NCBI GenBank assembly: GCA_964421565.1
Contig: CAYQXJ010000014.1
Span: 20,690-84,689, forward strand
Length of the DNA: 64,000 nucleotides
DNA from: an uncultured candidatus Brocadiaceae bacterium
Lineage (GTDB): Bacteria > Planctomycetota > Brocadiia > SM23-32
Reading direction: 5' to 3'
Below, one piece after another: positions 14,953 to 55,645 of the stretch. The number at the start of each line of letters is the position of its first letter. Position 1 is the stretch's first letter. The notes under the pieces are model-generated. The model was not told the origin of the DNA and searched no databases. It saw only the letters and a list, made by a program, of their open reading frames with translations. Position numbers and translations under genes: made by a program.

Positions 14953-15019
14953 GCCCGGGCGTAGCCTGTCGCGTTGCTTTCCATTCGTACCTGGCACTCA
15001 GGAGCGCCGGAGGCCCCCC

Positions 15020-16864
15020 ATGAACCGCAGCACGTACCGCGTCACCTTTCAGCCCGAAGGGCGTAGTGTCTTCGTCCTCGGCGGCACCGCACTCGTGGAG
15101 GCCGCCGGCCAGGCCGGCATCATCCTCAACCAGCCGTGCGGTGGGGAGGGCGTCTGTGGCAAGTGCCGCGTCGAGGTGCTGGAGAATGCGCCGGCGCCCA
15201 CCGCCGCCGACCGCCGCCACATCAGCGAGGAGCAACTGGCCGAAGGCTGGCGGCTGGCCTGCCGGCTTTGCGTTGAGAGCGACATGGTCGTCACCGTGCC
15301 GCAGGAGACGCGTTTCTTCGAGCAGATGGTGCTCACCGAAGGCGAGGGCCGCCGTTACCCCTTTGCTCCATACCTGCGCAAACGTTTCGTCACTGTGCCG
15401 CAGGCGACCGTCGAGGATCAGCGCAGCCATCTGGACCGACTGAAGGCCGTCCTCCACGAGAACGGCCTTCGCGTTGAGCTGCCCCTGGTACGGCGTCTCG
15501 GGGCCATGATCGGCGACGGCGAGCGCGCACTGACCGTCGTGACCGAGGGCGACGAGATTCAATGGCTCGAAGACGGCGACACGACGGACGAGCTTTTCGG
15601 CGTCGCCTTCGATATCGGCACCACAACGCTCGCCGGCAGCCTGCTGGACCTCACGGACAGCAGCCACGCCGGCGTGCGCGCCGTGGCCAGCCGCACCAAC
15701 CCCCAGATACACTTCGGCGACGACGTGGTCAGCCGCATCAGCTACATTGGGAAGAACGCCGACGGGCTGGCCAGGCTGCGCCGTCGACTGCTGACGGCGC
15801 TGAATGAGATCATCCTTGAGCTCTGCGCCTCAGCGGGTATTGAGCCGGAGGGCATCTACGAAGCGACAGCGGTCGGCAACACCACCATGTCGCACATATT
15901 CCTGGATGTCGATCCGAGCTGCATCGGGCGCTCGCCGTACGTGACGGTGTTGCGCGAGGCGGTGGACGTGAAGGCCCGCGATGTGGGCATCGAGATCAAC
16001 CGGAACGCGAATCTGCACGTGTTGCCGAATATCGCGGGCTTCGTCGGCAGCGACACGGTGGCCCTTGTGCTGGCGAGTGGCATGTCGAGCGATGAGCCGA
16101 TCCAGCTTGGCATCGACATTGGCACGAACGGAGAGGTAGTCATCGGCAACCGGGACCGGCTGATCGCCTGCTCCTGTGCCGCCGGGCCCGCCCTGGAAGG
16201 CGCGCGCATCCGCTACGGCATGCGGGCGACCGAAGGAGCCATCAGCAAGGTGGTCATCAACGACGGCATCGAGGTCGGCGTCATCGGCGGCGGGCGTGCG
16301 GGAGGCATCTGCGGCAGTGGCCTTGTCGACGCCGTTGCCGAACTGCTCAACGCCGGCGTGATCGACGGCGGCGGCCGCATCCTGACCGGGGGTGCGTTGC
16401 CGGAGGGGCTGCCCGTGGGCGTGCGCGAGGCGGTCGTCGAGTTCGAGGACCAGCCGGCCGTGGCCCTGGTTGCTGCGGGCGAGAGCAAGATCGGCGGACC
16501 GATCCTGCTCACGCAGCGCGACATACGCGAAGTGCAGCTTGCCAAGGGTGCCATTCAGGCGGGGGTGATGGTGCTGGCCGAGGAGTTCGGCGTCGAGCTG
16601 CGCGACATATCGCGCGTGCTGGTGGCGGGCGGCTTCGGCAACTTCATTCGGCGCTCCAACGCGAAGCGCATCGGCCTGTTGCCCGACGTGCACAGCGATC
16701 GCATCGAGTATATCGGCAACGCCGCACTGACGGGGGCGAAGATCGCACTGGCCTGCCGCCAGTGCCGAGAGGAAGCGGAGAGCATCAGCCGTCGCACGCA
16801 GTATGTAGAGCTGGCCAATCGCCCGGACTTCCAGATGCACTTCATGGAAGCGATGACGTTCTGA
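15020..16864 (+). CDS. ASKHA-family ATPase with N-terminal 2Fe-2S domain (RACo/DUF4445, reductive activator of corrinoid proteins)
   Basis: CGGEGVCGKC...RLAC ferredoxin motif, DIGTTT, FGDDVVSRI, DIGTNGE, AAGPALEG, GICGSG, QLAKGAI, GNAAL. Confidence 0.9.
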   Translation: MNRSTYRVTFQPEGRSVFVLGGTALVEAAGQAGIILNQPCGGEGVCGKCRVEVLENAPAPTAADRRHISEEQLAEGWRLACRLCVESDMVVTVPQETRFFEQMVLTEGEGRRYPFAPYLRKRFVTVPQATVEDQRSHLDRLKAVLHENGLRVELPLVRRLGAMIGDGERALTVVTEGDEIQWLEDGDTTDELFGVAFDIGTTTLAGSLLDLTDSSHAGVRAVASRTNPQIHFGDDVVSRISYIGKNADGLARLRRRLLTALNEIILELCASAGIEPEGIYEATAVGNTTMSHIFLDVDPSCIGRSPYVTVLREAVDVKARDVGIEINRNANLHVLPNIAGFVGSDTVALVLASGMSSDEPIQLGIDIGTNGEVVIGNRDRLIACSCAAGPALEGARIRYGMRATEGAISKVVINDGIEVGVIGGGRAGGICGSGLVDAVAELLNAGVIDGGGRILTGGALPEGLPVGVREAVVEFEDQPAVALVAAGESKIGGPILLTQRDIREVQLAKGAIQAGVMVLAEEFGVELRDISRVLVAGGFGNFIRRSNAKRIGLLPDVHSDRIEYIGNAALTGAKIALACRQCREEAESISRRTQYVELANRPDFQMHFMEAMTF

Positions 16865-25452: not shown

Positions 25453-26451
25453 ATGCTTCGCGGGTGTTACCGGCTCTGGGCTCTCGCCATTTTGACGGTT
25501 CTGGCCGGCTGCACGGCGCAGCCGGTCGGAACAATGCGCAGAAGTGGAGCGACGGCAGTGGAACGCATTGACTTCCATGGATGGCGCGACTGCTACCGGT
25601 TGAGCAACGGCGAGGCGGAGGTGGTCTTCGTGCCGCAGGTGGCGCGCATCATGCGCTATGCGCCTGCGGGTGGCGAAAACGTGCTGTGGGTGAACCCCCA
25701 GACGACGCCCGATGCAGTCGGCAACGGCGAGCCGCCGCACGTCGGCGGCTGGGTGAACTACGGCGGCTACAAGCTATGGCCGGCCCCGCAGCAGCGCTGG
25801 GGATGGCCTCCGCCGAGCGCACTGGACAGCGGACAGTGCACGCTCGAGGTCGAAGAGGGGGCGCTCCACGTGAGAGGCCAGGTCGACGAACACATCGGGA
25901 TCCGCTTCGACCGCGTCATCCGGCTCGCGCCGCAGGGCACACGGGTTGACCTGCAGCAGAAGATGGTGAACGTCTCGGCTGAGCCGGTCACGTGGGCCGT
26001 CTGGGACGTAACGCAGATCCCGTCGGCCTGCGTCGTATTCGTGCCACTTGCGCCCGGCTCGGACTATTACACACAGGAAGGCCTGCGCCTGAGCAACCAG
26101 TGGAGGCGGGTCGATTCGGTTCTGCTGTTGAGGCCGGAAGGGGAGCCGGAAAAGGTCTTTGTAAAGGGCGGGCCGGGCTGGCTCGGGGCGAAGGTATCGG
26201 GGCGCATATTCATCAAGATGTTCCGCCTCTCGCACATCAGCGCACCGGCGCCGGAGGCACCACGGGAAGTTTGGACCGGAGACACCGGCTACGTTGAGCT
26301 GGAGGTCGTCGGGCCACAGACGACGCTGATGCCGGGCGAGAGCGCAACGCTGGCGGAGACGTGGTTTCTGTGTTCGGCAGGCGCCGACGCGGAGACTGAC
26401 GGGCAGGTCGCGGCCGCCGCGCGCGCCTGCGCGCAGAAGGCGCACCGCTGA
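25453..26451 (+). CDS. Lipoprotein, DUF4380/galactose-mutarotase-like fold
   Basis: Lipobox LAGC; GW..CYRLSNG, NYGGYKLWPAPQ, WDVTQ, YVELEV. Confidence 0.7.
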   Translation: MLRGCYRLWALAILTVLAGCTAQPVGTMRRSGATAVERIDFHGWRDCYRLSNGEAEVVFVPQVARIMRYAPAGGENVLWVNPQTTPDAVGNGEPPHVGGWVNYGGYKLWPAPQQRWGWPPPSALDSGQCTLEVEEGALHVRGQVDEHIGIRFDRVIRLAPQGTRVDLQQKMVNVSAEPVTWAVWDVTQIPSACVVFVPLAPGSDYYTQEGLRLSNQWRRVDSVLLLRPEGEPEKVFVKGGPGWLGAKVSGRIFIKMFRLSHISAPAPEAPREVWTGDTGYVELEVVGPQTTLMPGESATLAETWFLCSAGADAETDGQVAAAARACAQKAHR

Positions 26452-26463
26452 GGCGCTGCTGCC

Positions 26464-26502
26464 AGGGGGTGGTGAGGCCTTACTAACGCGCCTCTACCCC
26501 CT
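26464..26502 (+). terminator. Imperfect hairpin downstream of the lipoprotein gene
   Basis: AGGGGGT/ACCCCCT and GAGGC/GCCTC stems; followed by TAAG only. Confidence 0.35.
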
Positions 26503-26551
26503 TAAGCGGGTGGGGCCCCATGTCCTGGCATAGGGAACTGGAACCGATTGA

Positions 26552-26766
26552 CTGACCCGCGCCGGCTGGTGGACCTCCGCCACCCTCGTGCCCGGCGAGC
26601 TGCGCGAGACCCTCACCGCCGAGGTCGTCCGGGAACACGTCCATGTTCGATTTGCTCTGCTACCGGCGCCTACTGGCGAGACAGGACCTGCCGGACAAAG
26701 CATGCGGGCGGCTCACGCGTGCCCTTCTGGCCGCAGTGCAGGCGCAGGTGCAGGCTGGCCGCATGA
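26552..26766 (+). pseudogene. Possible frameshifted gene remnant
   Basis: Protein-like helical text changes frame near 26640 (LVPGELRETLTAEVVREH, then MFDLLCYRRLLARQDLPDKACGRLTRALLAAVQAQV); no RBS and no complete ORF. Confidence 0.3.
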
Positions 26767-26865
26767 GATCGGCTGCCAAAGGGCTGAACGGCCGCGGCTG
26801 CGTAGAGGGCTGCGAACTCTCGCTGCCCCGGACCGCTCGGGCAGCGCGGCTTTGGGGTTTCGACC

Positions 26866-26914
26866 TTGACGTGCCGCCCCGAATAGGATAAAGTATCTAA
26901 ATATAAAGATACTT
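26866..26914 (+). promoter_or_regulatory. Sigma70 promoter with overlapping palindromic operator (probable ArsR site)
   Basis: TTGACG (26866-26871), 17 nt, TAAAGT (26889-26894); inverted repeat AAGTATCT-N8-AGATACTT (26891-26914) covers the -10 and the start site. Confidence 0.75.
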
Positions 26915-27046
26915 CGATGAAGCGGGCCGGTGGGGCGGTCCGACAGTCGAGGGGGCGAGGATATGCATCCCGGGGCAATCTGAGCAGAATCCGGCGGGGG
27001 GCCTCTGCCGGGAGCCAGCCATCACCAAGCGCGGGAGGAGTCGCGC

Positions 27047-27337
27047 ATGAGACCACAGGTCGAAGATGATGCTGCAATGTTCAAGGCGCTCTCCGATCCC
27101 CTGCGTCTGCGGCTTTTGAGCCTGCTGCCGACCAGCGGCGACAAGCGGGAGTTCTGCGTCTGCGATCTGGCCCGCAAGCTCGACGTCAGCCAGCCCTGCC
27201 TGTCGCACCATCTGAACATCCTCAAGAATGCGAGTCTGATCGGGTTTGAGAAAGACGGCTGCAGCACGTTCTACTACGTCGAAGATGATGAAATGCAGCA
27301 GAGACTGCGTGACTTTCAGAAGAGAATGAAACTGTGA
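27047..27337 (+). CDS. ArsR/SmtB-family transcriptional repressor
   Basis: FKALSDPLRLRLL, EFCVCDLA, SQP.LSHHL..LK; GGAGGAG RBS. Confidence 0.93.
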   Translation: MRPQVEDDAAMFKALSDPLRLRLLSLLPTSGDKREFCVCDLARKLDVSQPCLSHHLNILKNASLIGFEKDGCSTFYYVEDDEMQQRLRDFQKRMKL

Positions 27338-28365
27338 AGACGGCACTGATATACGACGAGATGACGCCCGACGGCCGGGCCGGCTGGGTGGAGGCCGAGT
27401 ATGAATCGCCCGAGACAATACAGGCGCTGCTGGACGCCATAGCGGAGCATTGCGATGAGGCGGTGGCGGTGCCTTTTGATGAGGGCCTCATCGGCCGGCT
27501 CCACATGGAACGTCCGGACCTGGCCTTCAACATCGCGGAAGGGCGCGCGGGGGCATCGCGCGAAACCATCGTCCCCTGCGTGCTGGAATACCTTCAGGTA
27601 CCTTACACCGGCTCGGACGGCGTTGCGCTGGGGGTGTCGCTGAATAAGGCGATGACCAAGCAGCTTGCCATGCGCGCGGGAGTGCCGACGCCGGAGTTCT
27701 CACTGTTCCGCGAGACGTGGCAGGTGGAGGAGGCAGCCGGAAGCCTGCCATATCCTGTGCTGGCCAAGCCCAACTACGGTGGCTCCAGCGTAGGCATTGA
27801 GCTGGACAGCGTGGTCGAGGGCCCGGACCGGCTGGTGCCCGTTGTGCAGGAGCACCTGCGCGTCTACGAGCAGCCCTGCCTGGTGGAGCGTTACGTGCGG
27901 GGGAGCGACGTGACGGTCGGGTTGCTCGGCAGTGAGCAGGGCGCGGGCATCGAGGTCCTCCCCGTTGGACGCATCGAAGCCCCCGACGGACTCTACTCCG
28001 CTCACGTTAAGCAGTCTCACGAGCGACGCGTCCTCTGCCCCTGCGACCTGCCCGAGGGCGTCGAGGAGCAGTTGATCGACTGGGCGCTGCGCGTTTACCG
28101 GGCGATTGGCGCACGCGACTTCGCGCGGGTGGACTTCATGGTCGACGAGGGCGGCGAGGCACACTTCCTGGAGATCAACCCCTTGCCCGGGCTGAGCCCC
28201 TTCTACGGGGTGTATCCTGTGCTGGCAACGGCTGCCGGTTACGACCACAGCGCCCTCATAGGCCGGATCATGGAGGTGGCAATGGACAGATACGCACGCA
28301 AAACGAGGAGCATGCAGCATGGACGACTGGCAACAGCAGTTGCGCAACAGCATCACAACTGTTGA
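27334..28365 (+). CDS. D-Ala-D-Ala-ligase-like ATP-grasp peptide ligase
   Basis: FNIAEG, PYTGSD, NKAMTK, KPNYGGSSVGI, ARVDF, LEINPLPGL; N-terminal AEYESPETI as seen in KamA-associated Ddl-like proteins; GTG start overlaps the ArsR stop. Confidence 0.88.
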   Translation: MKTALIYDEMTPDGRAGWVEAEYESPETIQALLDAIAEHCDEAVAVPFDEGLIGRLHMERPDLAFNIAEGRAGASRETIVPCVLEYLQVPYTGSDGVALGVSLNKAMTKQLAMRAGVPTPEFSLFRETWQVEEAAGSLPYPVLAKPNYGGSSVGIELDSVVEGPDRLVPVVQEHLRVYEQPCLVERYVRGSDVTVGLLGSEQGAGIEVLPVGRIEAPDGLYSAHVKQSHERRVLCPCDLPEGVEEQLIDWALRVYRAIGARDFARVDFMVDEGGEAHFLEINPLPGLSPFYGVYPVLATAAGYDHSALIGRIMEVAMDRYARKTRSMQHGRLATAVAQQHHNC

Positions 28366-29416
28366 GCAACTTGAGAGATACGTGAATCTGACGCCCGAAG
28401 AGCGCGAGGGGATAGCGCGCATTCAAGGCGTCTTCAACTGGGGCATTAGCCCTTACTACGCGTCGCTTATGGAACGCGACGATCCCCAATGCCCGGTGCG
28501 CCTGCAGGTGGTGCCGCGTATTCAGGAACGGCATGACGAGCTCGGCGTGTGGGACCCGCTCAAGGAAGAGGACCACAGCCCCGTCGAGAATCTGATCCAC
28601 GTCTATCCGGATCGCGTGGCGTTCTGCGTCAGCAGCGTCTGTGCCACGTTCTGCCGGTTCTGCCTGCGCAAGCGGATGGTGGATACGCGCGGTTCGGCCA
28701 TCACGGCGGCGAACTTCGAGGAAGGGCTCGACTACATCCGCGCGAACCCCGCCATACGCGACGTGCTGCTGACCGGCGGTGATCCACTGTTGATGGAGGA
28801 CGAGCGCGTTGAAGAGGTAGTGGCCAGGGTGCACGAGATACCGCATGTCGAGCTGGTGCGCATCGGCAGCCGCACGCCGTGTACACTGCCTATGCGGATC
28901 ACGGACGAACTGATGCGGCGCCTGAGCAAGTACCAGCCCTTCTGGATCAATACCCATTTCAACCACCCGAAAGAGCTGACCGAGGAGGCTGTAGCAGCCT
29001 GCGGACGCATCGTCGACGCCGGCATCCCCATGGGCAACCAGACCGTCTTCATGGCGGGCATCAACGACGACACTGAGGTGCTGAAGGAACTCGGCGAACG
29101 GCTGGTCGCGGCGCGCGTCAGGCCTTACTACCTCTACCAGTGCCAGGTGCTCAAGGGAACGGCCCATTTCCGTGTGCCGATTGAGCAGGGCATACGTATC
29201 GTGCGGGGGCTGCGGGGGCGCACCAGCGGATTCGCCATCCCGCAGTACGTCCTCGACACGCCTTACGGTAAAGTGCCGCTCAATTATGACTACTTGAAGG
29301 GGCGCGACGGGGAAGACATGGTCATGGAAACCTTCTCGGGCAAGATCTGGCGCGAGCCAAACTCCCTGCGCAGGTGTGCAACATGTCAGGCGGATCCGAA
29401 CCTCGTCTCATCCTAA
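28319..29416 (+). CDS. KamA-family radical SAM/PLP 2,3-aminomutase
   Basis: DWQQQLRN, DPL.E, HVYPDR, CATFCRFC, LLTGGDPL, RIGSRTP, NTHFNHPKE, PYYLYQC, GKVP (PLP lysine). Confidence 0.93.
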   Translation: MDDWQQQLRNSITTVEQLERYVNLTPEEREGIARIQGVFNWGISPYYASLMERDDPQCPVRLQVVPRIQERHDELGVWDPLKEEDHSPVENLIHVYPDRVAFCVSSVCATFCRFCLRKRMVDTRGSAITAANFEEGLDYIRANPAIRDVLLTGGDPLLMEDERVEEVVARVHEIPHVELVRIGSRTPCTLPMRITDELMRRLSKYQPFWINTHFNHPKELTEEAVAACGRIVDAGIPMGNQTVFMAGINDDTEVLKELGERLVAARVRPYYLYQCQVLKGTAHFRVPIEQGIRIVRGLRGRTSGFAIPQYVLDTPYGKVPLNYDYLKGRDGEDMVMETFSGKIWREPNSLRRCATCQADPNLVSS

Positions 29417-31224
29417 TCTGCCTCGGCAACCCCGGGCCCGAATACGCAGGCACCCGTCACAACGCGGGTTTCCTGTTCGCCGACTGGTTGCGTGAGCGAC
29501 AGGGCTTCGGCGACTACCGTCAGCTCGACGGAGCCGAGGCGCGGGTATCCGAAGGCAACATTGTGGGCCTGCCCGCCATGCTGGTGAAGCCCATGACCAG
29601 CATGAATGAGTCGGGACGGGTGATGGATGCCCTTGCGGAGCGGTACGATCCCGACGAGCACCTGTACGCCATCGCGCACGACGATCTGGACGTTGCCGTC
29701 GGCAGCGTGAAGGGCCGGGCCAAGGGCGGCCACGCAGGGCACAACGGTGTGCGCTCTATCCTGGAGGCTGCCGGGCGCAGAGACATCGTCCGCATCAAGC
29801 TTGGGGTCAACAGCACCGCCCGACGCGGCTATGACGGGCCAGTCGAGTTCCTGCTCAGCGACTTCGACGCCGGCGACCGCCAGGAGCTTGAGCAGGCTTT
29901 CCCCGACGCGGAACAGGTGCTGGTGGGGCAGGTGAAGTCCTTCCTCGCGAGCCTCGACAGGCGAGACGGGCGACGGCAGGCTGCCGAAGCGTACGAACGC
30001 GATGTCCTGGTGGGGGCGCGCGAGGCTCTGGTAGAGGTTCCGGCGGCGTCGCCGTGGCCCGTCCTGCTGGAAGGCAAGGACATGGCGCGAGTCTTCGACG
30101 TGGTCTCGGTGCTTGCCAAGCTGCTGCGCAAAGCGCGCGTGGCCGCTGCGGAGAACGACGTGTTCTACGCGCGGCTGGCCTCTTGCATCCCAGAACACCT
30201 GCGCGCCCTGCTGGCGGGGCGGCGAAGGACCCAGCGGGTGTTCTTTGCCGTGGATCTGCATGTCTCAGAGCAGGGCATCAAGGTCATCGAGCTGAACTGC
30301 GCCGTGGGCTACGGGCACTACGCAGCCGTGGCGGACGAAGCCCTCTGGGCGCTCGTGCAGGACGTGCCCGGCCCGCTGCGCCGGCCGAACGACGAGCAGT
30401 TCGCCCCCTTCCTCCTTGAGAACGGCCTCCTGCCGCTTCACGATCCGGCGGGCGGCTGCATCGCCTTCCTGCGCGGCTTCGGCGGGGAGGATATGTTTAA
30501 CGTGGACGAGTTGGGGGGCGTGGTGGCGCGCATCGCCAAATCCGGAGGTCCGTCAATGCCCCTCTGTGACGAGGGCGAACTGGAACTGCGGGATGATGGC
30601 CTGCATCTGCCTGATGGAGGGCGGATCGACTTGCTGTACGTCGAGGAGAACCTGGCCGAGTGGCCCGCTGATCCCGCCGACTCTGCGGTGCGGCGGGCTG
30701 TTGAGTGCGGGCTCGTCAGAACTTTCCCGCCGCTCGATATGTTCCTGTTCACAAGCAAGGCTTTCCTCGCCGCCCTGCTGGACCCGGACCTGCGGCGGTA
30801 CTTCGATCCCGACGATGAGGAGAGCAAGGTCCTGCGCGAGAACGTGCTCTGGTCCCAACGGCTTGATGCACACATCGAGCCGGCAGCTTACTACATGCTG
30901 GAGCAGGGGCTGCCCCTCGTCGTCAAGGATGCATTGGGAGGCGGTGGGCGCGGAGTGACCATCCTGCGCCCCGACTCCGCAGGCCAGCAGGCGGGGCACA
31001 TCCTGCGGCGCCGCATGCTGGAGGGAGGTAGCGTCGTGCAGGGCTACTTCGCGCCGGGGCGATGGCGAGAGGGCAGCGACCTGCGCTTCGACGTGCGCGT
31101 CCTCTGCGCAGCGCACGAGGGCGACATCCGCATCGGTCCCGTCTACGGCAGGACTTTCCGCAGCGACAAGCTGTCCTTGAATGAGCCCGATGCCGGCGTC
31201 GCGCCAGTGTACGTGCTGGACTGA
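29383..31224 (+). CDS. Fusion of peptidyl-tRNA hydrolase (N-terminal) and circularly permuted/GspS-type ATP-grasp ligase (C-terminal)
   Basis: Pth motifs: LGNPG..Y..TRHNAGF, KP.T.MN.SG, HDDLD, GHNG.RSI. ATP-grasp motifs: D......GIKVIELN, SKAFLA.L.D, LVVK...GGGGRGV, VVQ, DVR. One continuous frame; start set to ATG 29383. Confidence 0.85.
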   Translation: MSGGSEPRLILICLGNPGPEYAGTRHNAGFLFADWLRERQGFGDYRQLDGAEARVSEGNIVGLPAMLVKPMTSMNESGRVMDALAERYDPDEHLYAIAHDDLDVAVGSVKGRAKGGHAGHNGVRSILEAAGRRDIVRIKLGVNSTARRGYDGPVEFLLSDFDAGDRQELEQAFPDAEQVLVGQVKSFLASLDRRDGRRQAAEAYERDVLVGAREALVEVPAASPWPVLLEGKDMARVFDVVSVLAKLLRKARVAAAENDVFYARLASCIPEHLRALLAGRRRTQRVFFAVDLHVSEQGIKVIELNCAVGYGHYAAVADEALWALVQDVPGPLRRPNDEQFAPFLLENGLLPLHDPAGGCIAFLRGFGGEDMFNVDELGGVVARIAKSGGPSMPLCDEGELELRDDGLHLPDGGRIDLLYVEENLAEWPADPADSAVRRAVECGLVRTFPPLDMFLFTSKAFLAALLDPDLRRYFDPDDEESKVLRENVLWSQRLDAHIEPAAYYMLEQGLPLVVKDALGGGGRGVTILRPDSAGQQAGHILRRRMLEGGSVVQGYFAPGRWREGSDLRFDVRVLCAAHEGDIRIGPVYGRTFRSDKLSLNEPDAGVAPVYVLD

Positions 31225-31229
31225 GCTGC

Positions 31230-32618
31230 TCAGAGGGCCGCCGCGATCCGCCCGCGCAGCCGGCGCATGAGAGGCAGGTGTTCCGCCCGGGCGGCCAGGT
31301 TTGTGGTCTCGCCCGGGTCCACGTTCAGATCGTAGAGCTCGTGTTCCCCGAGGGGGCTGCAGGTAAAGCGCCAGCCCTGTGCCGTGACGAGCGTGCGCAC
31401 AGGGTCCGACCACGACTCGAGGATCTGTTCCTTCGTGGCATCCGGCAGCTCGACGTTGGGGCTGTAGCCGTTTGAGCCGTTCCACTCGATGACGATATCC
31501 TGGTCGAGTTCCGTGACAGTACCCTCCGCGGCTTGGCGCAGGCTCTTGCCTTCCAGCGCTTCGGGGACTGGCTGGCGCATCACGTCGAGCAGCGTGGGCA
31601 CGAGGTCGATCTGGCTGATCGGCCCGCTGACCCGGTGCCCTTCCCGTTGGCCAGGCACGCGCACCAGCAGAGGCACCCGCACCGACTCCTGGTACATGAC
31701 CGTCTTTGCTACCATGCCGTGACTGCCCATCATGTCGCCGTGGTCGCTGGTATAGACCACGACGGTATTGTCGGCGAGGCCGAGCTCCTCCAGCACGTCC
31801 ATGATGCGGCCGAAGTAAGTATCGACCTGGCTGCAGAGGCCCCAGTAGCGCGCTATGAGCCGGCGGAAATCTTGCTCGGACTGGAAGCGGTTGTGCCACT
31901 TGGCATGGCCGGCCCGCAGCCGTAGCGGCTGGTCCGCTCCGGGCACGGCTTCGAAGTTGTCCGGCAGGGGTATACTTTCGGGTTCGTACTGATCGTCGCG
32001 CGGCCCGGTGAACGGCATGTGCGGCTCCAGGAAATTGACGAACAGCACGAAAGGGTTGTCATGGTTCTTGCGCAGGAAGCGGGTGGCTTCCCGGGCGAGG
32101 TAGGCCGGCTTGCTGTATTCTTCGGGCAGTTTTGCCGCCTGGCTACGGTTGAAGAAGTCGCCCTCGGGCGCCTCCAATCCCTGCTCGCGGAGCCAGCGCT
32201 GATAGTGCGACAGCTCGTCGCGCGGCTTGCCCGGACGGTAGTACGGGCGATACATGTCCTCTATGGCACGCCATTCCGAAAACCCGTGCTGCGGGAATAT
32301 CTCGTCCCCCAGGTGCCACTTGCCGTGATGGGCGCACGTGTAGTTGCCCTCGGTCAGCATCTCCGGCAGGCACGGGGTGTCCGGTGAGAGCGGGACGTTG
32401 TTCGCTATGCAGCCGTTCGTGTGCGGATAGAGGCCGGTAAGCAGTGACGAGCGGGACGGCGTGCAGACCGGCTGAGTAACGTAGGCTTCCTCGAACACCG
32501 TGGCAGTCTCCGCGAAGCGGTTCAGGTTAGGCATCTCGATGTGTGTATTGCCGTAGGCTGCCATGGTGTCGTAGCGTTGCTCGTCGGTGTAGATGAACAG
32601 CAGGTTGGGTGCGGGCAT
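31230..32618 (-). CDS. Sulfatase (Cys/FGly type)
   Basis: PNLLFIYTDEQR, CTPSRSSLLTG, GKWHLG, SDHG, ELYDL..DP.E; no signal peptide. Confidence 0.93.
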   Translation of the reverse strand: MPAPNLLFIYTDEQRYDTMAAYGNTHIEMPNLNRFAETATVFEEAYVTQPVCTPSRSSLLTGLYPHTNGCIANNVPLSPDTPCLPEMLTEGNYTCAHHGKWHLGDEIFPQHGFSEWRAIEDMYRPYYRPGKPRDELSHYQRWLREQGLEAPEGDFFNRSQAAKLPEEYSKPAYLAREATRFLRKNHDNPFVLFVNFLEPHMPFTGPRDDQYEPESIPLPDNFEAVPGADQPLRLRAGHAKWHNRFQSEQDFRRLIARYWGLCSQVDTYFGRIMDVLEELGLADNTVVVYTSDHGDMMGSHGMVAKTVMYQESVRVPLLVRVPGQREGHRVSGPISQIDLVPTLLDVMRQPVPEALEGKSLRQAAEGTVTELDQDIVIEWNGSNGYSPNVELPDATKEQILESWSDPVRTLVTAQGWRFTCSPLGEHELYDLNVDPGETTNLAARAEHLPLMRRLRGRIAAAL

Positions 32619-32679
32619 GGGGTCCCTTCTTCCTCATTGTCTGAGTAGCGCCTCGCACGCGGCGCGTTGTGCGAGAGAG

Positions 32680-34032
32680 CTATCGGCGCGCGCCGGTGCC
32701 AGCTGACGCGACGGCAGCCAGCCACGTGGCGGCGGGCGAGTTCAACTTCAGGTGATGCTGCACGATTCGTTCTGTAAGTTCGGCCACCACTTGTCTGCAG
32801 GCAGGGTCCTCAAAGCGGTTGTGCACCTGGGCCGGGTCTTTGCGACGATCGAAGAGGACCGGCTCAGAGCGGTGGACGTACGCCAGCTCCCAATCCCTGG
32901 CGAATATGCCGGCGGCCAGATGGCTGCTGTGGTGTATGAAGACATCGTCTCTCCATTCGACATCCTGCCCGCTCAGCAGGGCAGAGGCGTCCCGCCCCTG
33001 CTCCCTGCCGCAGGGCTCGATACCCATCAGGCCAAGGATGGTGGGCTGAAAGTCCACCGTGCTCAGGAGTGAAGTGAACACGGCGCCCGCCGGCACCTGC
33101 CCTGGCCAGCGAACAAGCATTGGAAGTCGATACACCGACTCGTAGAGCATGTTCTTATTGACCAAGCCGTGCTCCCCCATGTAGTCACCGTGGTCGCTGG
33201 TGAACACGACGATGGTCTTGTCCAGAATCCCCCGCTGCTGCAAACAGTCCAGAATGTGGCCCAGGTTGTCATCAATGCACCGCACCTCGCCGCAGAACAA
33301 CGCCATGCGCCGGCGCAACTGGTCTTCGTCGCCCTGCCAGAGGGTGCCGCCCAGGGTGCCACTGCGCACCCAATCGGGCAGGGCCTCCTGGCGAACGGTG
33401 GCCGGCAGTTCCATGTCCTCGGCGCGGAACATGCTGTGATAGGGCTCGCGGATATCCGCCGGGTCGTGCGGATCGGGGATGCTGAGCATGTGAAAGAACG
33501 GTTCTTCCGCGCCCTCGAGGATCTCCAGTGTCTTGGCGGTCAGGTAATCTGTAGTGTAGGACTCCTCGTTTCCGATCACGCCATAGGGATAGACCATGGG
33601 CTGGGTCTCGGCCATCGGCATATCCTCCATGCGTTGCCAGTGGCCTCGGTTGAACATGAAGCGGTTGTCCTGGAAGCCCATCCCGCGTTCGGGGTGAACC
33701 CAGCCGGGGCGCGGCGCGCCGTCCAAATGCCACTTGCCGACGTAACCTGTGGAATAGCCGGCATCACGCAGCACGTGGGCGAGCGTGACCTCGTCGGAGT
33801 TCAGCGGGTGGTTGTTGGCGTAGGCCCCATGGCAGTGAGGGTAGCGACCGGTCAGGAAGCATCCGCGCGAAGGAGTGCAGACTGCGCTGTTGGTGAAGAA
33901 GTTGGTCAGCAACGCGCCCTCGCCGGCCAGCCTGTCTATGTTCGGCGTCTCAACGGGCGAACGACCGTAGGCGCTGACCATCCACCACGGCTGCTGGTCG
34001 GTGTGAACGATAAGCAAGTTCGGACGCGGCAT
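32680..34032 (-). CDS. Sulfatase (Cys/FGly type)
   Basis: PNLLIVHTDQQ, CTPSRGCFLTG, GKWHL, SDHG; start set to MPRPN. Confidence 0.93.
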   Translation of the reverse strand: MPRPNLLIVHTDQQPWWMVSAYGRSPVETPNIDRLAGEGALLTNFFTNSAVCTPSRGCFLTGRYPHCHGAYANNHPLNSDEVTLAHVLRDAGYSTGYVGKWHLDGAPRPGWVHPERGMGFQDNRFMFNRGHWQRMEDMPMAETQPMVYPYGVIGNEESYTTDYLTAKTLEILEGAEEPFFHMLSIPDPHDPADIREPYHSMFRAEDMELPATVRQEALPDWVRSGTLGGTLWQGDEDQLRRRMALFCGEVRCIDDNLGHILDCLQQRGILDKTIVVFTSDHGDYMGEHGLVNKNMLYESVYRLPMLVRWPGQVPAGAVFTSLLSTVDFQPTILGLMGIEPCGREQGRDASALLSGQDVEWRDDVFIHHSSHLAAGIFARDWELAYVHRSEPVLFDRRKDPAQVHNRFEDPACRQVVAELTERIVQHHLKLNSPAATWLAAVASAGTGARR

Positions 34033-34043
34033 GAGGGCTCCGT

Positions 34044-35468
34044 CTAACGGGTTGCTGAGTCTTCTTGCTGGATGGAGAGCGGTCCGATCGGCGCCGTGCG
34101 CAGCGTGGCGTATTGCGTGTTGAAGAGCGAGACGTCCCCGATCTCTTTCATCTTGCGCCACATGCGCATGCACATCTCCTCCAGCACGCCCCGATGCTCG
34201 GGGTCGTCGGCCAGGTTCTGCACTTCATGCGGGTCGTCGGCGAGGTTGTAGAGTTCGTCCATGCCGCCGGGGGTGAAGATGTACTTCCAATCGGCGTGCC
34301 ATGTAATGCGCTGGGTGTAGACGAAGCGTTGGCCGAAGAACTCCGCGTAGGCGTCCTGCCAGTCGGCAGGGTCGGCCGTGCCGTCGAGCACTCCTCGCAG
34401 AGAGCGGCCCTGCGCCGTATGCATCGGCTCGGCGCCGCAGAGGTCGAGGACGGTCGGCGCCACGCAGGTCATATCCATGCGATGCGCGCCGTCCTCGCCC
34501 GTCCTCATGCCGGGCATGCCGATCACGAGGGGCACGTTGTAGACCTCCTCGTAGCCGGTGCCCACCCCCTTGGTCACCAGGCCGTGCGCGCCGAGCATGT
34601 CGCCGTGATCGCTGGTGACGATGACGAGGGTATTCTCGTAGACTCCGGCTTCTTTCAGCGCGTCCACCACTCGCCCGACCTCGGCGTCGAGCCATGTGAC
34701 CACCGCCCAGTAGGCGGCGCGCACTGTGCGCCAATCGTCGTCGGTGAGGTCCCGCCAAACACCCCGCATCCGCTGCAGCACCTCGGGTTTGTCGCCGTAG
34801 CCGTATTCTTCGTGGAGCGTGGGGGGCAGCTCGATGGCGCTGACGTCGTACATATCCCAGAACTTCTTGAACGGCACATAGGCGTCATGCGGCTCGTTAC
34901 TGGAGATGAAGCAGCAGAACGGCTCCTGCCCGTCGGCATGCCGGCGGATGAAGTCGATGCCCTTCTCGTAGGCGGGGTGGCGAGGGTCCTCGACGTCCCG
35001 GCCCACGGCGCAGAGCCGGTACGGTCGGTATCCCCGATTCTCGACCACGACGCCGGTCCCCTCAATCTGCGCGGGCTGCACGCCGCCGCAGGAGATGTCC
35101 CACTCGTGCCAGCCGAATGGTGTGAGGTCCTTTGTCTGCTCGACATGCCACTTGCCGAAGTAGCCCATGGCGTAGCCGGCATCGGCGAGCGGCCGGGAGA
35201 AGTAAGTGAGCCGTTCGTCTACGTTCACCCATTCGCTGCGCTGAGTGTGCGTGCAGTCCCACATGCCGTGCGTCGAGGCGTAGGTGCCCGTCATCAGCGA
35301 GGCGCGGGCCGGCGAGCAGATGGCGTTCGTGGTGTAGAAGTGCGCGAAGCGCAGACCCTCCTGCGCGAGCGCGTCCACGTTTGGCGTCAGGCATTGACTG
35401 CCCGGCGCGAGGGCCTCGGCGTTCGTGTGGTCGGACATCAGGATGACAACGTTGGGTCGAGACGGCAT
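34044..35468 (-). CDS. Sulfatase (Cys/FGly type)
   Basis: PNVVILMSDH, CSPARASLMTG, GKWHV, SDHG, ELYNLADDP.E. Confidence 0.93.
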   Translation of the reverse strand: MPSRPNVVILMSDHTNAEALAPGSQCLTPNVDALAQEGLRFAHFYTTNAICSPARASLMTGTYASTHGMWDCTHTQRSEWVNVDERLTYFSRPLADAGYAMGYFGKWHVEQTKDLTPFGWHEWDISCGGVQPAQIEGTGVVVENRGYRPYRLCAVGRDVEDPRHPAYEKGIDFIRRHADGQEPFCCFISSNEPHDAYVPFKKFWDMYDVSAIELPPTLHEEYGYGDKPEVLQRMRGVWRDLTDDDWRTVRAAYWAVVTWLDAEVGRVVDALKEAGVYENTLVIVTSDHGDMLGAHGLVTKGVGTGYEEVYNVPLVIGMPGMRTGEDGAHRMDMTCVAPTVLDLCGAEPMHTAQGRSLRGVLDGTADPADWQDAYAEFFGQRFVYTQRITWHADWKYIFTPGGMDELYNLADDPHEVQNLADDPEHRGVLEEMCMRMWRKMKEIGDVSLFNTQYATLRTAPIGPLSIQQEDSATR

Positions 35469-40165: not shown

Positions 40166-41629
40166 TCAGGCGCCGACGTCTGGCTGGTAGGGGCGGTCGG
40201 TATCGGTACGGGTGCACCAGTCGATCATCTTGCGCTGGAGCTCGGGCACGATCTGTTCGTAGCCCTCGCGGCCCCACAGGTTGCGCATTTCGTACGGATC
40301 TTCTTCCATGTCGTACAGCTCGTCTCCGCCGACCAGCCGGGTGACCAGCTTCCACTTGTCGGTGCGCACCATCTTCGTGCGGGCCATCGTCTCCGGATGC
40401 AGGGCGTAGGTGCGCTGCTTGCCGCTGCTGTCGGGGGCGTACTCTACCCGTTCCCACATCTCTGCCTCGTGCCCGCCGTCCGCGAAGACGGCCTCCTTGT
40501 GCCGAGCCCCGTCGATCACCGGCAGCAGACTCTCGCCGTGTATGCCCCAGGCGGGCTTGATGCCGAGCAACTCGAGGATCGTTGGCGCCAGGTCAGTGTG
40601 CTCGCTCAGGCTTTCGATCAGGCGGCCCTGAGGCAGGCCCGGCGCGTACAGGATGCAGGGCACGTGCAGCAGGCAGTCGGCCATGCAGGTGTCCCATTTC
40701 TCCGGCAGGCCGTACTGCCCCGCGAAGTCGCCGTGATCGACGAAGAACAGGACGATCGAGTCCTCGAAGAGTCCTTCGCGCTCGATGGCGTCCAGAACGC
40801 GTCCGAGCACGTGATCGGTCTTGGTTACCATGGCGTAGTAGACGGCCTGCACTTCGCGCAGCATCCACTCGGGGGCGTCCGTTCCCGTGCGCACTTCGCG
40901 CATGCGGCGCAGCGGCAGCGGGGCGCTTTCCGGCAGGTCGTAGGGCCACGGCTGGATGGCGTCGCGCTTGTACATGCTGAAGTAAGGCTCCGGCGCCTTG
41001 TAGCCGGGGTGTGGCCAGCTAAGGTTCAACTGCATGAAGAAGGGGCGCGAGCGGTCGCGCACGTTGGTCAGGTATTCGATGGCCTGCTCGGCGCGGTTGT
41101 CGTCGCAGAAGAAGGTCATCGGCTCCTCAACGCGGCCGCCGTAGTGGTAGTCCGCATCTGTGGGCGGGGAGGGCGGCCCGACACTCAGGGGGCCCGGCGG
41201 CTCCACGGGCCACTGTCGTTCGAGCATATGGCGGAAGTAGCCCTCGGTGAAGGAATGGTAATCGACGTAGGAGGCACCCTTTTCGTTGAGTCCCTCGCCG
41301 AACACGTTCTCCCATACATGGTTGATGCCGAACAGGGCGCTCTCGTAGCCGTGGGCCTTGAGGGCAGAGAGCAAGTCCGGCTGGTCGTTCGGCAGGTGTT
41401 GCTGGATGGTGCGGAAGCCGTCGGTGTGGCAGTAGCGCCCGGTCATCATGGCGATGCGAGTCGGTACGCACTTGGGGAAGACGGAGAAGTGGTTGCTCAG
41501 GTTGACGGCGCGCGTGGCGAAGCGGTCGAGGTTAGGCGTGCGGCAGTCGGGGTTGCCCATGTAGCCGGGGCAGTCCCCGCGCATCTCGTCGGAGGAGAGG
41601 ATGATGACGTTCTTCCGTCGGTCGGGCAC
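40166..41629 (-). CDS. Sulfatase (Cys/FGly type)
   Basis: NVIILSSDEMR, CVPTRIAMMTG, DHGDFAG, ELYD...DPYE; GTG start. Confidence 0.9.
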   Translation of the reverse strand: MPDRRKNVIILSSDEMRGDCPGYMGNPDCRTPNLDRFATRAVNLSNHFSVFPKCVPTRIAMMTGRYCHTDGFRTIQQHLPNDQPDLLSALKAHGYESALFGINHVWENVFGEGLNEKGASYVDYHSFTEGYFRHMLERQWPVEPPGPLSVGPPSPPTDADYHYGGRVEEPMTFFCDDNRAEQAIEYLTNVRDRSRPFFMQLNLSWPHPGYKAPEPYFSMYKRDAIQPWPYDLPESAPLPLRRMREVRTGTDAPEWMLREVQAVYYAMVTKTDHVLGRVLDAIEREGLFEDSIVLFFVDHGDFAGQYGLPEKWDTCMADCLLHVPCILYAPGLPQGRLIESLSEHTDLAPTILELLGIKPAWGIHGESLLPVIDGARHKEAVFADGGHEAEMWERVEYAPDSSGKQRTYALHPETMARTKMVRTDKWKLVTRLVGGDELYDMEEDPYEMRNLWGREGYEQIVPELQRKMIDWCTRTDTDRPYQPDVGA

Positions 41630-43477: not shown

Positions 43478-44827
43478 TTATGCCTCAGCCTCGAAGGCGC
43501 ACAGCAACGGTTCGAGCGCGGCCGTAGTGACGCCGGCGTGATTCTGGCGTCCGTGGCCGCGGCAGACGGCGCTGACGCTCTTCGCGGCGCACCCGTGATC
43601 GCGGCCGTCGGGGAGGGCCCGTCGCGCCAGCGAGAGGCAGACCCGGCCGATGTCGAGTGCGCGCGCGGCGAGCTCTCGGTCGCCCCGAATCTCGGCGCCG
43701 AGGGCGAGCGTGAGCGGGTTGCAGCGGCGTTCGCGACCGTCCTCCAGCCAGCGCAGCATGTCCGCTCTTTTGCCGATGCCTGAGGGCCGACCATCGAGCC
43801 GCACGGAGGGATCGAGTGTCAGCTCCGAGAACGACCAGGGATCGAGTGATTCCACCACTTCCATCACCGCCTCGTCGTAGCGCCGCTCGCCTGTGGCGTT
43901 GCGATACGCCCGCACGGCGTCGGCCGCGGCGCCCGCGTCAGGGTCAGGGAGCTGCGTGACCAGCACATCGATGATGCGTTCGGCGGCGCGTCTGAAGTGC
44001 CGCTCCCCGGTGATGCTACCCAACTGCAGCAGCGCCCCGGTGACGTCCGAGGCGAGCAGGTTCTCGGCGCGGTCCACAGGGCTGTCCATCTGCTGCGGCA
44101 GCATGCCTACGAAACTGCGGTAGAGCTGCTCCTGGTCGGCGCCGAGGGTGGTAACCCCGCCATCCGGGCCGAGTGCAACAGGCAGGGACTCGGACTCGTT
44201 GACGGCTTCTGCCCAGCGGCCGAGGTAGTCGGTGCAGAACTCGATGTAGCGCGATCTCGCTGTGGCCCGATGCGCGAGCAGGCAGACGTTGACGAACCGG
44301 ACATGGTCCGGCACGTTGAGGGGCGGTTCATCGGCGACTTCGGCCGTGCCCATGTGCACGGCGCGGAACAGGCGCGCATCGGCGTCGTACCAGTCGGGCA
44401 CCCCCGCTACCCAGTTGCCGACATGTTCGGCTGCGTCGTCGAGCTGACGGGCGGTCTCGTCGTCGTTTGGGTTGAGGGCGAGCAGCGTGCCGAGGAAGAG
44501 CTCGTAGTGCTCGGTGCCGTGATGGGGCTCATGCACGCGCCAGTAGCCGTGCTGCCAGGCACCGCTCTGCACGAAATGGTCGCGGATGCGGTCGCGAGTG
44601 TCCTTCAGGAAGGCGAGCACTGCGCCGTCGTCGCGCCGACGCACCCAGGGGGCCCAGCCCGTCGTGTAGGTGCCCTGATCGTGCCCGTCCGTCGGCGCGG
44701 TGTCGCCATACCTGCGCACGCATTCAAGCGCCCAATCGCCTAACTCGTCCAGGAAGCGCTCGGCGGCCTCCTCGAGGCCGGTCGAGGGCTCAATCCGGGC
44801 TGAGAACATGTCCGCTCCTTCCGACAT
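43478..44827 (-). CDS. Hypothetical protein (probable alpha-helical barrel, carbohydrate-active context)
   Basis: 449-aa ORF starting 2 nt after the upstream GH gene; His/Asp/Trp-rich motifs (DGHDQG, HHGTEH, PDH, DHGC). Confidence 0.65.
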   Translation of the reverse strand: MSEGADMFSARIEPSTGLEEAAERFLDELGDWALECVRRYGDTAPTDGHDQGTYTTGWAPWVRRRDDGAVLAFLKDTRDRIRDHFVQSGAWQHGYWRVHEPHHGTEHYELFLGTLLALNPNDDETARQLDDAAEHVGNWVAGVPDWYDADARLFRAVHMGTAEVADEPPLNVPDHVRFVNVCLLAHRATARSRYIEFCTDYLGRWAEAVNESESLPVALGPDGGVTTLGADQEQLYRSFVGMLPQQMDSPVDRAENLLASDVTGALLQLGSITGERHFRRAAERIIDVLVTQLPDPDAGAAADAVRAYRNATGERRYDEAVMEVVESLDPWSFSELTLDPSVRLDGRPSGIGKRADMLRWLEDGRERRCNPLTLALGAEIRGDRELAARALDIGRVCLSLARRALPDGRDHGCAAKSVSAVCRGHGRQNHAGVTTAALEPLLCAFEAEA

Positions 44828-44829
44828 CG

Positions 44830-47295: not shown

Positions 47296-47313
47296 TGCGT
47301 GCTCCCAAACGGC

Positions 47314-49770: not shown

Positions 49771-49905
49771 GGCGAGACCTCCCTCTCCGATGGGCGTGGA
49801 TGCAATGGCCTGTGCTTGTGACGTCTATCCCTTAGGGAAAACCATTTGAGCACGATAGGACGATAGGGCGCGGCAAGCAAGCGCATACCGGCCCGGGGGG
49901 CCGTG

Positions 49906-51219: not shown

Positions 51220-51227
51220 TGGCCTGG

Positions 51228-51303
51228 CCCCATTCTATGTCCCACTTGCTATGAGAGAGTGTTGCTGTTTCGGGCGCGCGTGTTGCGGAAGGACGAGGGA
51301 ACC
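51228..51303. repeat. 76-bp direct repeat, copy 1
   Basis: 71 of 76 positions identical to 52844-52919 by manual alignment; immediately upstream of the MATE gene. Confidence 0.92.
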
Positions 51304-51429
51304 GAGCCCTGGAGGAAAATACGCGCCTCGGCAAACTCCTGCTGGGTACGGCGAGGTTTCTGGGGCTCCATAGCCTGCCACTGTTGCAGATCGTCCATCG
51401 GGCGGCAGCCCCAGCCGTGCAGCCGCTCA

Positions 51430-51530
51430 GGGCCGGGAAAGTGAGTGTGCCCGCAGAGCACAGTATCGCACCCGGCCGCCTACATCCAGCCGCCGATAGT
51501 CGGTATCTCGGGCATGGTGTGCTCCGTGTG
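51430..51530 (-). pseudogene. Possible metallophosphoesterase fragment
   Basis: Minus frame reads ...IGGWM*AAGCDTVLCGHTHFP: a calcineurin-like GHTH motif preceded by an in-frame TAG. Confidence 0.35.
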
Positions 51531-51538
51531 GCCTTGCT

Positions 51539-52744: not shown

Positions 52745-52843
52745 GATCACTCCCTGATCGGTAAAAGACATCTTCAGTAGCGGGCGGTCTGGGGCGGGCC
52801 GGTGTCGATGGCCAGCGCCACTTCGTCGAAGCAGCTGGGCTGC

Positions 52844-52919
52844 CCCCATTCTATGTTCCACTTGCTATGCGAGAGTGTTGCTGTTCCGGGCGCGCGTGTT
52901 GCGCAAGGGCGAGGGAACC
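52844..52919. repeat. 76-bp direct repeat, copy 2
   Basis: See copy 1; about 100 nt upstream of the BNR gene. Confidence 0.92.
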
Positions 52920-55607: not shown

Positions 55608-55645
55608 GCAGCCTGCCAGGCCGACCGGCGAGGAGTCTGCCGCCC

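Follow-up and report, generated by a model that had tools for sequence, protein, structure and literature searches.

Why should a bacterium that already owns a peptidyl-tRNA hydrolase (Pth) carry a second one joined to an amide-forming ligase? Pth is normally a stand-alone housekeeping enzyme. The question is raised by a gene on the forward strand of a 64,000-nucleotide stretch of DNA from an uncultured candidatus Brocadiaceae bacterium (assembly GCA_964421565.1, contig CAYQXJ010000014.1, positions 20,690 to 84,689; the whole stretch is called the window below), which encodes a Pth and a circularly permuted ATP-grasp ligase in one polypeptide. The fusion is a solid, conserved and unexplained architecture. 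Our tentative answer, to which we assign a probability of roughly 35%, is that the ligase would use an aminoacyl-tRNA as its amine substrate and that its own Pth would serve as the release domain, in a ribosome-independent route to beta-amino-acid peptides that is convergent with the PEARLs.

The whole fusion gene occupies positions 29374..31224 of the plus strand. It encodes 616 amino acids (aa) from the GTG at 29374 or 613 aa from the ATG at 29383, the latter being the start used in the preliminary description and giving the same protein as database entry P0001. As the preliminary description of this DNA had reported, the two domains share one uninterrupted frame: a single open reading frame (ORF) runs from 29374 to 31224 with no internal stop, and it overlaps the 3' end of an aminomutase gene. 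The product consists of a Pth1-type domain (29407..29898, residues ~12-175), a long helical linker that extends the C-terminal helix of the Pth (29899..30063, residues ~176-230), and a circularly permuted ATP-grasp ligase domain with the fold of GspS, YgiC and eukaryotic glutathione synthetase (30064..31221, residues ~231-616), all encoded on the plus strand. The AlphaFold2 model of the whole fusion, built from a 25-row alignment, has a mean pLDDT of 87.5 and a pTM of 0.73, and DSSP assigns helices to residues 176-210 and 212-218 of the linker in this model. The prediction of a two-chain complex between residues 228-616 and 8-178 scored 0.00 in both runs and gives no evidence either way on contacts between the domains.

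The fusion in the window is genuine and not an accident of assembly. The preliminary description had suggested looking for a stop or frameshift between the domains, and there is none in the contigs of four sequencing runs: these four per-run assemblies cover positions 28747-31300 or more, junction and gene included, with 0 differences and no indels. The runs belong to one microbial-mat study and are possibly the source of the window itself, so they do not count as independent, and the independent support for the fusion comes from its homologues. A word-index search in which 8000 candidates were scored returned 29 proteins at E <= 0.001. Among them, 26 are 550-625 aa long, have PF01195 on record and, the window's own entry P0001 aside, are 55-64% identical to the window protein; the remaining three are two short fragments on 2-2.5 kb contigs and P0029, in which a ligase fragment adjoins a cytochrome bd domain. 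The database names of this family are merely 'aminoacyl-tRNA hydrolase' or 'PTH1 family peptidyl-tRNA hydrolase'. Altogether, 24 full-length homologues (54-63% identity) share the fusion, with the linker and the junction collinear throughout the alignment; a lack of fused homologues, which the preliminary description had named as a ground for rejecting the fusion, is thus not what is seen. The alignment used below comprises the window protein and these 24 sequences, and leaves out P0001, the 550-aa P0025, the two fragments and P0029.

The Pth domain is apparently catalytically complete and retains its tRNA clamp, judging from profile scores and aligned residues. Residues 14-183 match the Pfam family Pept_tRNA_hydro (PF01195) with an E-value of 2.2e-40 and 138.9 bits against a cut-off of 27. 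The same part scores 134.4 bits with the NCBIfam model TIGR00447 'pth', passing its equivalog cut-off of 100, and matches a solved mycobacterial Pth at E 9e-33. The catalytic set described as intact in the preliminary description is present in full and invariant in 25 of 25 aligned sequences: N19 (GNPG), H29/N30 (RHN), N78 (MN), D103 (HDDLD) and H123/N124 (GHNG). In the alignment to the E. coli Pth from NC_000913.3, N19, H29, N78, D103 and N124 correspond to N10, H20, N68, D93 and N114, which we take to be the catalytic residues. The basic clamp residues R115, R140 and K142 are likewise invariant in all 25 family members; R115 and K142 align with E. coli K105 and R133, which presumably form the clamp on the 5' phosphate of the tRNA. 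Averaged over all pairs, the 25 sequences share 58.7% identity in the Pth domain, where 27 of 164 columns never vary, and 63.6% in the ligase domain (76 of 386), with the linker as the least conserved region of the protein (47.7%, 1 of 55 columns). Given these values, the Pth part is under purifying selection comparable to that on the ligase.

This domain is not the housekeeping Pth of the organism. The window's genome (91% complete, 58 contigs) contains two Pth matches. The higher-scoring of them (191 bits) comes from a gene of 190 aa on another contig, located between rplY (L25) and rpsF-ssb; the separate housekeeping pth that the preliminary description had recommended looking for is thus found next to rplY. 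The fused Pth domain is ~38% identical to it. With its 616 aa the fusion departs from the single-domain form of ~190 aa in a ribosomal-protein context. It resembles housekeeping Pth1 in profile score and in catalytic and clamp residues, which are identical or conservatively kept, but housekeeping Pth1 is a single-domain protein in an rplY-pth-rpsF context, whereas the fusion provides a second copy within an accessory gene cassette. Two Pth matches per genome were also obtained for two related genomes that bear this cassette, and one match for each of two genomes without it. Since a housekeeping pth is present, the fused copy is free to take on a special role.

The second domain is, on the evidence of its modelled fold, an ATP-grasp ligase of the GspS/YgiC/glutathione synthetase type. 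The AlphaFold2 model of residues 196-616 has a pLDDT of 90.9 and a pTM of 0.92. A fold search of 48,161 representative chains with VIA-align, which is independent of Foldseek, ranked ten ligases of the circularly permuted ATP-grasp type highest, with Z 22-27 and alignments spanning almost the entire domain; the next match had Z 11. The top matches are YgiC (7uka, Z 26.8) and residues 212-615 of E. coli GspS (2io7, Z 26.4), followed at Z 22-25 by the plant, nematode, yeast and trypanosome glutathione or homoglutathione synthetases, 3n6x, the E-64 ligase Cp1B and trypanothione synthetase. Ordinary ATP-grasp enzymes reach Z <= 9 and match over the C-terminal half only (residues ~163-421). Foldseek concurs with E-values from 1e-14 to 1e-9 (best 2.6e-14), and an ESM Atlas search with residues 200-616 returned clusters of 'hypothetical protein' together with one GSP_synth cluster.

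The domain-profile search suggested in the preliminary description matched Pept_tRNA_hydro, whereas its GSP_synth and CP_ATPgrasp half gave no match of the window protein to PF03738, PF04174 or PF14403 at E <= 0.01 in Pfam. The C-terminal ~400 residues produced sub-threshold matches only, namely R2K_3 (16.7 bits against 26.3) and a 35-residue stretch of a pyruvate carboxylase model. However, the remote relatives P0040, P0044, P0045 and P0046 do pass the CP_ATPgrasp cut-offs, which provides a transitive sequence link. By fold and by transitive sequence links, therefore, the domain is of the glutathionylspermidine-synthase type that had been proposed from the letters alone, and the structure prediction recommended as a check identifies a circularly permuted ATP-grasp. 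All C-terminal motifs named at that time are present and invariant in 25 of 25 sequences: D294, E306/N308 (VIELN), K462 (SK), K518 with GGGGRGV, Q556 (VVQ) and D573/R575 (DVR). The comparison of these residues with E. coli Gss by hhalign is weak, with one alignable stretch of 61 columns at probability 0.33 and E 0.18. In this alignment D294, E306 and N308 fall on D318, E330 and N332 of Gss, and R316 of Gss falls on an invariant alanine, A292, in agreement with the earlier remark that the arginine preceding the first aspartate is missing. We take D318, E330 and N332 of Gss to be its metal-binding D...E-x-N motif and R316 to be the associated arginine two residues before the aspartate.

The cassette that contains this gene belongs to one family-level lineage. 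A scan of species-representative genomes gave 12 loci, all in metagenome-assembled genomes (MAGs) labelled Planctomycetota/Brocadiia, and of the 11 related loci that extend over the N-terminal region, 10 have the Pth part. The ligase domain occurs in 17 of the 32 genomes of the window's GTDB order, the window genome included. It was found in 16 of 30 other genomes of the same family, in 11 of 21 genera and in 7 of 11 high-quality genomes. In an even sample of the phylum, 1 genome out of 401 had it, that of the window itself; two more matches were stretches of ~110 residues at E 1e-6 to 1e-7. The carriers are bacteria of marine sediments and microbial mats. Two records of this family are irregular. 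In an older MAG, Planctomycetes bacterium SM23_32 (L011:1400-1949), residues 3-45 and residues 52-186 of the Pth part match in different frames and the fusion gene appears as two entries in the ORF list, through a frameshift or a sequencing error; P0029 (554 aa) combines ~240 ligase residues (55-57% identity) with a cytochrome bd subunit I and is probably a chimeric contig or a gene-calling artefact.

Beyond the close family, an exhaustive phmmer search with the ligase domain against 1.84 billion representatives retrieved 22 proteins at E <= 0.001. The next relatives are P0031, P0033, P0034 and P0035, which are 620-821 aa long and 27-34% identical in the ligase domain. These four, among the six most distant ligase relatives examined, are also N-terminal Pept_tRNA_hydro fusions, and the pairing of Pth and ligase would be old because relatives at 27-34% ligase identity are fused too. 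The other two, P0032 and P0036, lie at a similar distance and are stand-alone ligases without a Pth. Farther phmmer matches pass the Pfam cut-offs for CP_ATPgrasp_1 or CP_ATPgrasp_2. Either the fusion is older than the split between the close and the distant group, or it came about repeatedly. The four distant fusions keep H20, N68, D93 and the basic clamp positions (E. coli numbering), while N10 is replaced by serine in four of four and N114 by lysine or arginine in three of four.

The distant fusions (P0031, P0033, P0034, P0035 and P0049) are rare, and all records of them come from run assemblies. A large insertion in the ligase makes P0033, like P0049 (822 aa) from its cluster, ~200 aa longer, and P0033 ends in a Cys-rich, zinc-ribbon-like tail. 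A metagenome scan with the distant fusions gave 194 pattern matches, among which there was one weak partial relative only. A word-index search with P0034 found itself and P0035 only, and tblastn with P0034 against phages (7 records) and plasmids (15 records) yielded no fusion, the matches being ordinary Pth-like stretches that cover <=36% of the query.

One lineage has the ligase without the Pth. In genome G404 the locus L014:5584-9227 holds a complete cassette in which the final gene codes for nothing but the ligase domain and begins near the position of fusion residue 207; the interval that separates it from the aminomutase gene is too short to hold a remnant of the Pth. In a FastTree phylogeny (32 rows, 410 columns) the L014 protein is sister to the fused P0002 with an SH-like support of 1.000, and it is nested among fused proteins under any rooting. 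From this nesting and the absence of a remnant it follows that the Pth part was lost secondarily in L014.

The fusion gene is the last of four genes on one strand, in the order ArsR/SmtB regulator, Ddl-family ligase, KamA-family aminomutase and fusion or ligase gene. The order is kept in 9 of 9 related loci that reach far enough upstream, the other three being cut by contig ends. In the window the gene ends overlap at 27334-27337, 28319-28365 and 29374-29416, and the cassette is an accessory, co-directional unit that is probably co-translated. All three enzymes are extra to the housekeeping set, and both Pth and Ddl have separate housekeeping copies. The first gene (27047..27337, plus strand) encodes a 96-aa winged-helix regulator of the ArsR/SmtB family (Pfam HTH_5, E 7.5e-13; NCBIfam HTH_metalloreg, 79.4 bits against a cut-off of 55), and its stop overlaps the next start. 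A CVC motif is typical of arsenite-sensing ArsR proteins. Such a motif is present in 7 of 10 copies of the regulator (window and L003-L014), the remaining three having SVC, CVG and GVC. All copies share two further cysteines, one in SQPCLSHH and one in KDGCS, which may form a different sensing site.

The second gene (27334..28365, plus strand) encodes a 343-aa paralogue of the Ddl-family ATP-grasp ligases (Pfam Dala_Dala_lig_C, E 8.8e-35). Its closest solved relatives are Ddl enzymes (E 8e-34), and among the 25 best of its 49 NCBIfam matches it remains under every Ddl/Van cut-off (best 172 bits against 243). A stronger Ddl match is located elsewhere in the genome (C2, 161 bits). Compared with E. 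coli DdlB, the protein keeps the ATP/Mg residues (K215, R255, D257, E270 and N272), and has replacements at Y216, S281 and L282, which we take to be residues of the D-Ala2 pocket. It is probably an amino-acid ligase with a changed pocket for the second substrate. A conserved C-terminal tail of ~25 residues, absent from E. coli DdlB, ends in Asn-Cys or His-Cys in three of five aligned copies.

The third gene (28319..29416, plus strand) encodes a 365-aa radical-SAM/PLP amino-acid 2,3-aminomutase of the KamA family (TIGR00238, 314 bits against a cut-off of 199), the only KamA-family gene above cut-off in the genome. It does not reach the equivalog cut-offs of the lysine (TIGR03820, 416.5 bits against 525.4), glutamate (404 against 650) or arginine (402 against 600) 2,3-aminomutases, and its E-value to the solved lysine 2,3-aminomutase KamA (2A5H) is 3e-112. 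The two have R134, D330 and the PLP lysine K337 in common, but the position of D293 is glutamine in 11 of 11 cassette copies. In 2A5H, D293 and D330 are presumably the aspartates that bind the epsilon-amine of lysine. The aminomutase may therefore represent a new substrate specificity in the KamA family.

The flanks of the cassette vary between loci. A GFO/IDH/MocA oxidoreductase alone recurs, in 5 of the 10 loci compared, at variable distance and on the opposite strand. No conserved small ORF accompanies the cassette beyond very close relatives, which makes small-molecule or tRNA substrates likelier than a scaffold peptide. The window has no ars genes or exporter beside the cassette. PADLOC assigned the three enzymes to no defence-system family and gave generic HTH matches only for the regulator, and a promoter and terminator scan of 26300-31500 returned counts at chance level (1 vs 0.8; 2 vs 2.2). 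The rest of the window includes an rpoBC-rpsLG-fusA cluster, sugar-metabolism genes and many sulfatases, and its only tRNA gene is tRNA-Trp (238-314). Directly after fusA, closing that cluster, lies a RACo-type reductive activator of corrinoid proteins (Fer2 + RACo, 14939-16864). Five consecutive ORFs on the minus strand at 43478-52861 (449, 821, 818, 437 and 440 aa) have coding-like GC3 and no Pfam match at E <= 1e-5. The segments 31230-35468, 40166-41629 and 55517-57040 hold at least five sulfatases, GFO/IDH/MocA oxidoreductases, xylose-isomerase-like TIM barrels, a GH130 phosphorylase and a fucose isomerase; together these genes form a neighbourhood for breaking down polysaccharides that has no relation to the cassette.

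Among the closest known systems is E. coli Gss (GspSA; 2io7), which is annotated as a fused amidase/synthetase and in which a hydrolase at the N-terminus is likewise followed by a linker and then by a circularly permuted ATP-grasp ligase. The two ligase folds superpose over 354 residues with an rmsd of 3.6 at 14% identity, and the D...E-x-N motifs align in the weak alignment mentioned above. The hydrolases differ, Gss having a CHAP amidase and the fusion a Pth1-type esterase, as do the arginine-to-alanine position and the gene context, which for the fusion comprises an aminomutase and a Ddl-like ligase. Gss provides a precedent for this ligase fold being naturally fused to an N-terminal hydrolase that acts on the chemistry of the ligase. 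The best structural match, YgiC/YjfC (7uka, 7uk6; for the top match rmsd 3.3 over 339 residues, 14% identity), is in contrast stand-alone and without a hydrolase domain. YgiC and YjfC are described as peptidylpolyamine (peptide-spermidine) synthetases that form amides on small peptides, and the structural relatives of Cp1B as ATP-grasp amide-forming enzymes (PMC12568646).

How could a Pth serve such a ligase? ATP-grasp enzymes activate a carboxylate as an acyl-phosphate. In the mechanism that we favour, the aminomutase would make a beta-amino acid, and the Ddl-like ligase would couple it to a second amino acid. The fused ligase would then use ATP to convert the resulting carboxylate into an acyl-phosphate, which would be attacked by the alpha-amine of an aminoacyl-tRNA to give an N-acyl-aminoacyl-tRNA, in effect a short peptidyl-tRNA. 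The built-in Pth would hydrolyse the ester, releasing a small beta-amino-acid peptide and recycling the tRNA. An N-acyl-aminoacyl-tRNA belongs to exactly the substrate class of Pth, so that hydrolysis of the product by the fused domain would be expected. The model for this chemistry comes from the PEARLs (peptide aminoacyl-tRNA ligases), in which a carboxylate is phosphorylated with ATP at an ATP-grasp-like site and then attacked by the amino group of an aminoacyl-tRNA, after which the tRNA ester is hydrolysed (PMC11962472, PMC12945691). The likeness extends to the proposed chemistry only: PEARLs have an unrelated LanB-like fold, extend a ribosomally made scaffold peptide and have no Pth domain, whereas our protein combines Pth with a circularly permuted ATP-grasp and no conserved small ORF lies by its cassette. 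By analogy, PEARL-like chemistry with release by the fused Pth is tentatively proposed here, at odds somewhat short of even. In an even bolder variant, the ligase may esterify the 3' end of a tRNA with a dipeptide, which the Pth domain would edit or oppose.

Several observations fit this proposal. A release role would explain why a catalytically complete, clamp-retaining Pth has been kept in cis over a deep divergence, and it requires no scaffold-peptide gene. The loss of the Pth domain would be tolerable because the housekeeping Pth can act in trans. A number of points weigh against it. We know of no ATP-grasp enzyme that uses an aminoacyl-tRNA. The term 'ATP-grasp' has 0 occurrences in a 2026 review of aminoacyl-tRNA-dependent enzymes. 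The cassette contains no tRNA or aminoacyl-tRNA synthetase gene. One lineage retains the whole cassette without the Pth part, and in its genome, G404 (78% complete), the housekeeping Pth was the only one found; the stand-alone relatives P0032 and P0036 similarly imply that the ligase does not need a Pth in cis. The changes at N10 and N114 in the distant fusions suggest that the full Pth chemistry may not hold across the clade, and the replacement of the GspS arginine by alanine suggests that substrate handling differs from that of the characterised relatives. Finally, the model of the complete protein has a lower pTM (0.73) than that of the ligase by itself (0.92) and shows no sign of a fixed geometry between the domains, which is a weak argument.

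The preservation of a complete Pth admits other explanations, the nearest being that the two ligases and the aminomutase make a small peptide or amide from free substrates, independently of tRNA, and that the fused domain acts as a safeguard or self-resistance function, an extra peptidyl-tRNA hydrolase supplied whenever the pathway is on. The need for it could arise if reactive acyl-phosphates or the product N-acylate aminoacyl-tRNAs, or if the product makes ribosomes stall and more peptidyl-tRNA drops off. In favour of this explanation, Pth is known to undo the toxic N-acetylation of aminoacyl-tRNA by GNAT toxins, and the domain passes the model for ordinary Pth with all residues kept. That the cassette of L014 persists without the Pth part, and that stand-alone ligase relatives exist, also agrees with a protective role. 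A safeguard, however, would not have to be covalently joined to the ligase, and still relatives with as little as 27-34% ligase identity are fused; moreover, a housekeeping Pth is already there, and the related loci compared have no conserved exporter or other resistance gene beside the cassette. We consider this explanation unlikely, though serious. The parallel with Gss leads to a different one, in which the ligase would form an ester that its own Pth cleaves, so as to hold the conjugate at a regulated steady-state level or to proofread wrong products; an example would be an N-blocked amino acid or dipeptide loaded onto a ribose acceptor such as the 3' end of a tRNA. In the order and size of its parts the protein matches Gss, where ~195 aa of hydrolase likewise precede the linker and a ligase with this fold. 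Conservation is complete in both active sites of the fusion, and ATP-grasp enzymes can form esters, as VanA-type Ddl and graspetide ligases do. But we are aware of no ATP-grasp enzyme that acylates RNA 3' ends, this explanation accounts for the aminomutase and the second ligase no better than release from tRNA does, and loss of the Pth in L014 would leave the conjugate unopposed, so that we regard it as improbable.

It is also conceivable, if decidedly doubtful, that the Pth has been repurposed and no longer acts on tRNA, serving either to hydrolyse another ester of the pathway, such as an ester-linked intermediate or a nucleoside-peptide, or as a binding module only. CRS2, a Pth homologue without hydrolase function that serves as a binding module in chloroplast intron splicing, appears among the solved relatives. 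The N10 and N114 changes in the distant fusions point the same way, and in unrelated biosynthetic clusters stand-alone Pth-family genes are reported to adjoin MNIO enzymes (PMC12452194). Catalytic and clamp residues that are invariant in 25 of 25 sequences, and a score above the true-Pth cut-off, are nevertheless unexpected for a binding module or for a new substrate. A chance fusion, mis-assembly or gene-calling artefact has practically no probability left: some records of the family are indeed imperfect (L011 in two frames, P0029 with its cytochrome bd domain), but such an origin is refuted by the 24 homologues with the same junction, the 17 of 32 genomes of the order, the contigs of four runs and the separate housekeeping pth. 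Assignment of the cassette to the EF-P beta-lysylation system was rejected, as it is accessory (16 of 30 genomes), ArsR-regulated and without a lysyl-tRNA-synthetase-like EpmA, although no search was aimed at efp or epmA themselves. Whatever the route, the product of the cassette is possibly a compatible solute or a metal-binding thiol peptide, in view of its regulation by an ArsR-type protein, the life of its hosts in mats and sediments, and a ligase fold shared with glutathione synthetase.

The preliminary description had offered two mechanisms, acylation of an aminoacyl-tRNA followed by release, and protection of translation. Its anatomy of a complete Pth and a GspS-type ATP-grasp stands, and its mechanistic part is neither borne out nor excluded. 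The present analysis adds a conserved four-gene cassette, in which the fusion is accompanied by an aminomutase and another ligase, as well as the resemblance to Gss and a lineage that lost the Pth. A fusion of Pth with such a ligase is not described in the title or abstract of any of the papers listed for Pth with ATP-grasp, amidoligases or aminomutase, and passages of PMC7824862 contain no relevant mention of it; an earlier mention may nevertheless exist.

Because a fully conserved extra Pth is covalently attached to an enzyme that forms amides, it can be tested directly whether small-molecule peptide ligation is linked to the tRNA pool. If an aminoacyl-tRNA is indeed the substrate, the ATP-grasp superfamily would join the few enzyme classes that divert aminoacyl-tRNA from translation, and two or three enzymes of the cassette would form a compact system that produces beta-amino-acid peptides. 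Should tRNA not be the substrate, the fusion would point to a so far unrecognised tRNA hazard of such pathways, or to a new substrate of Pth.

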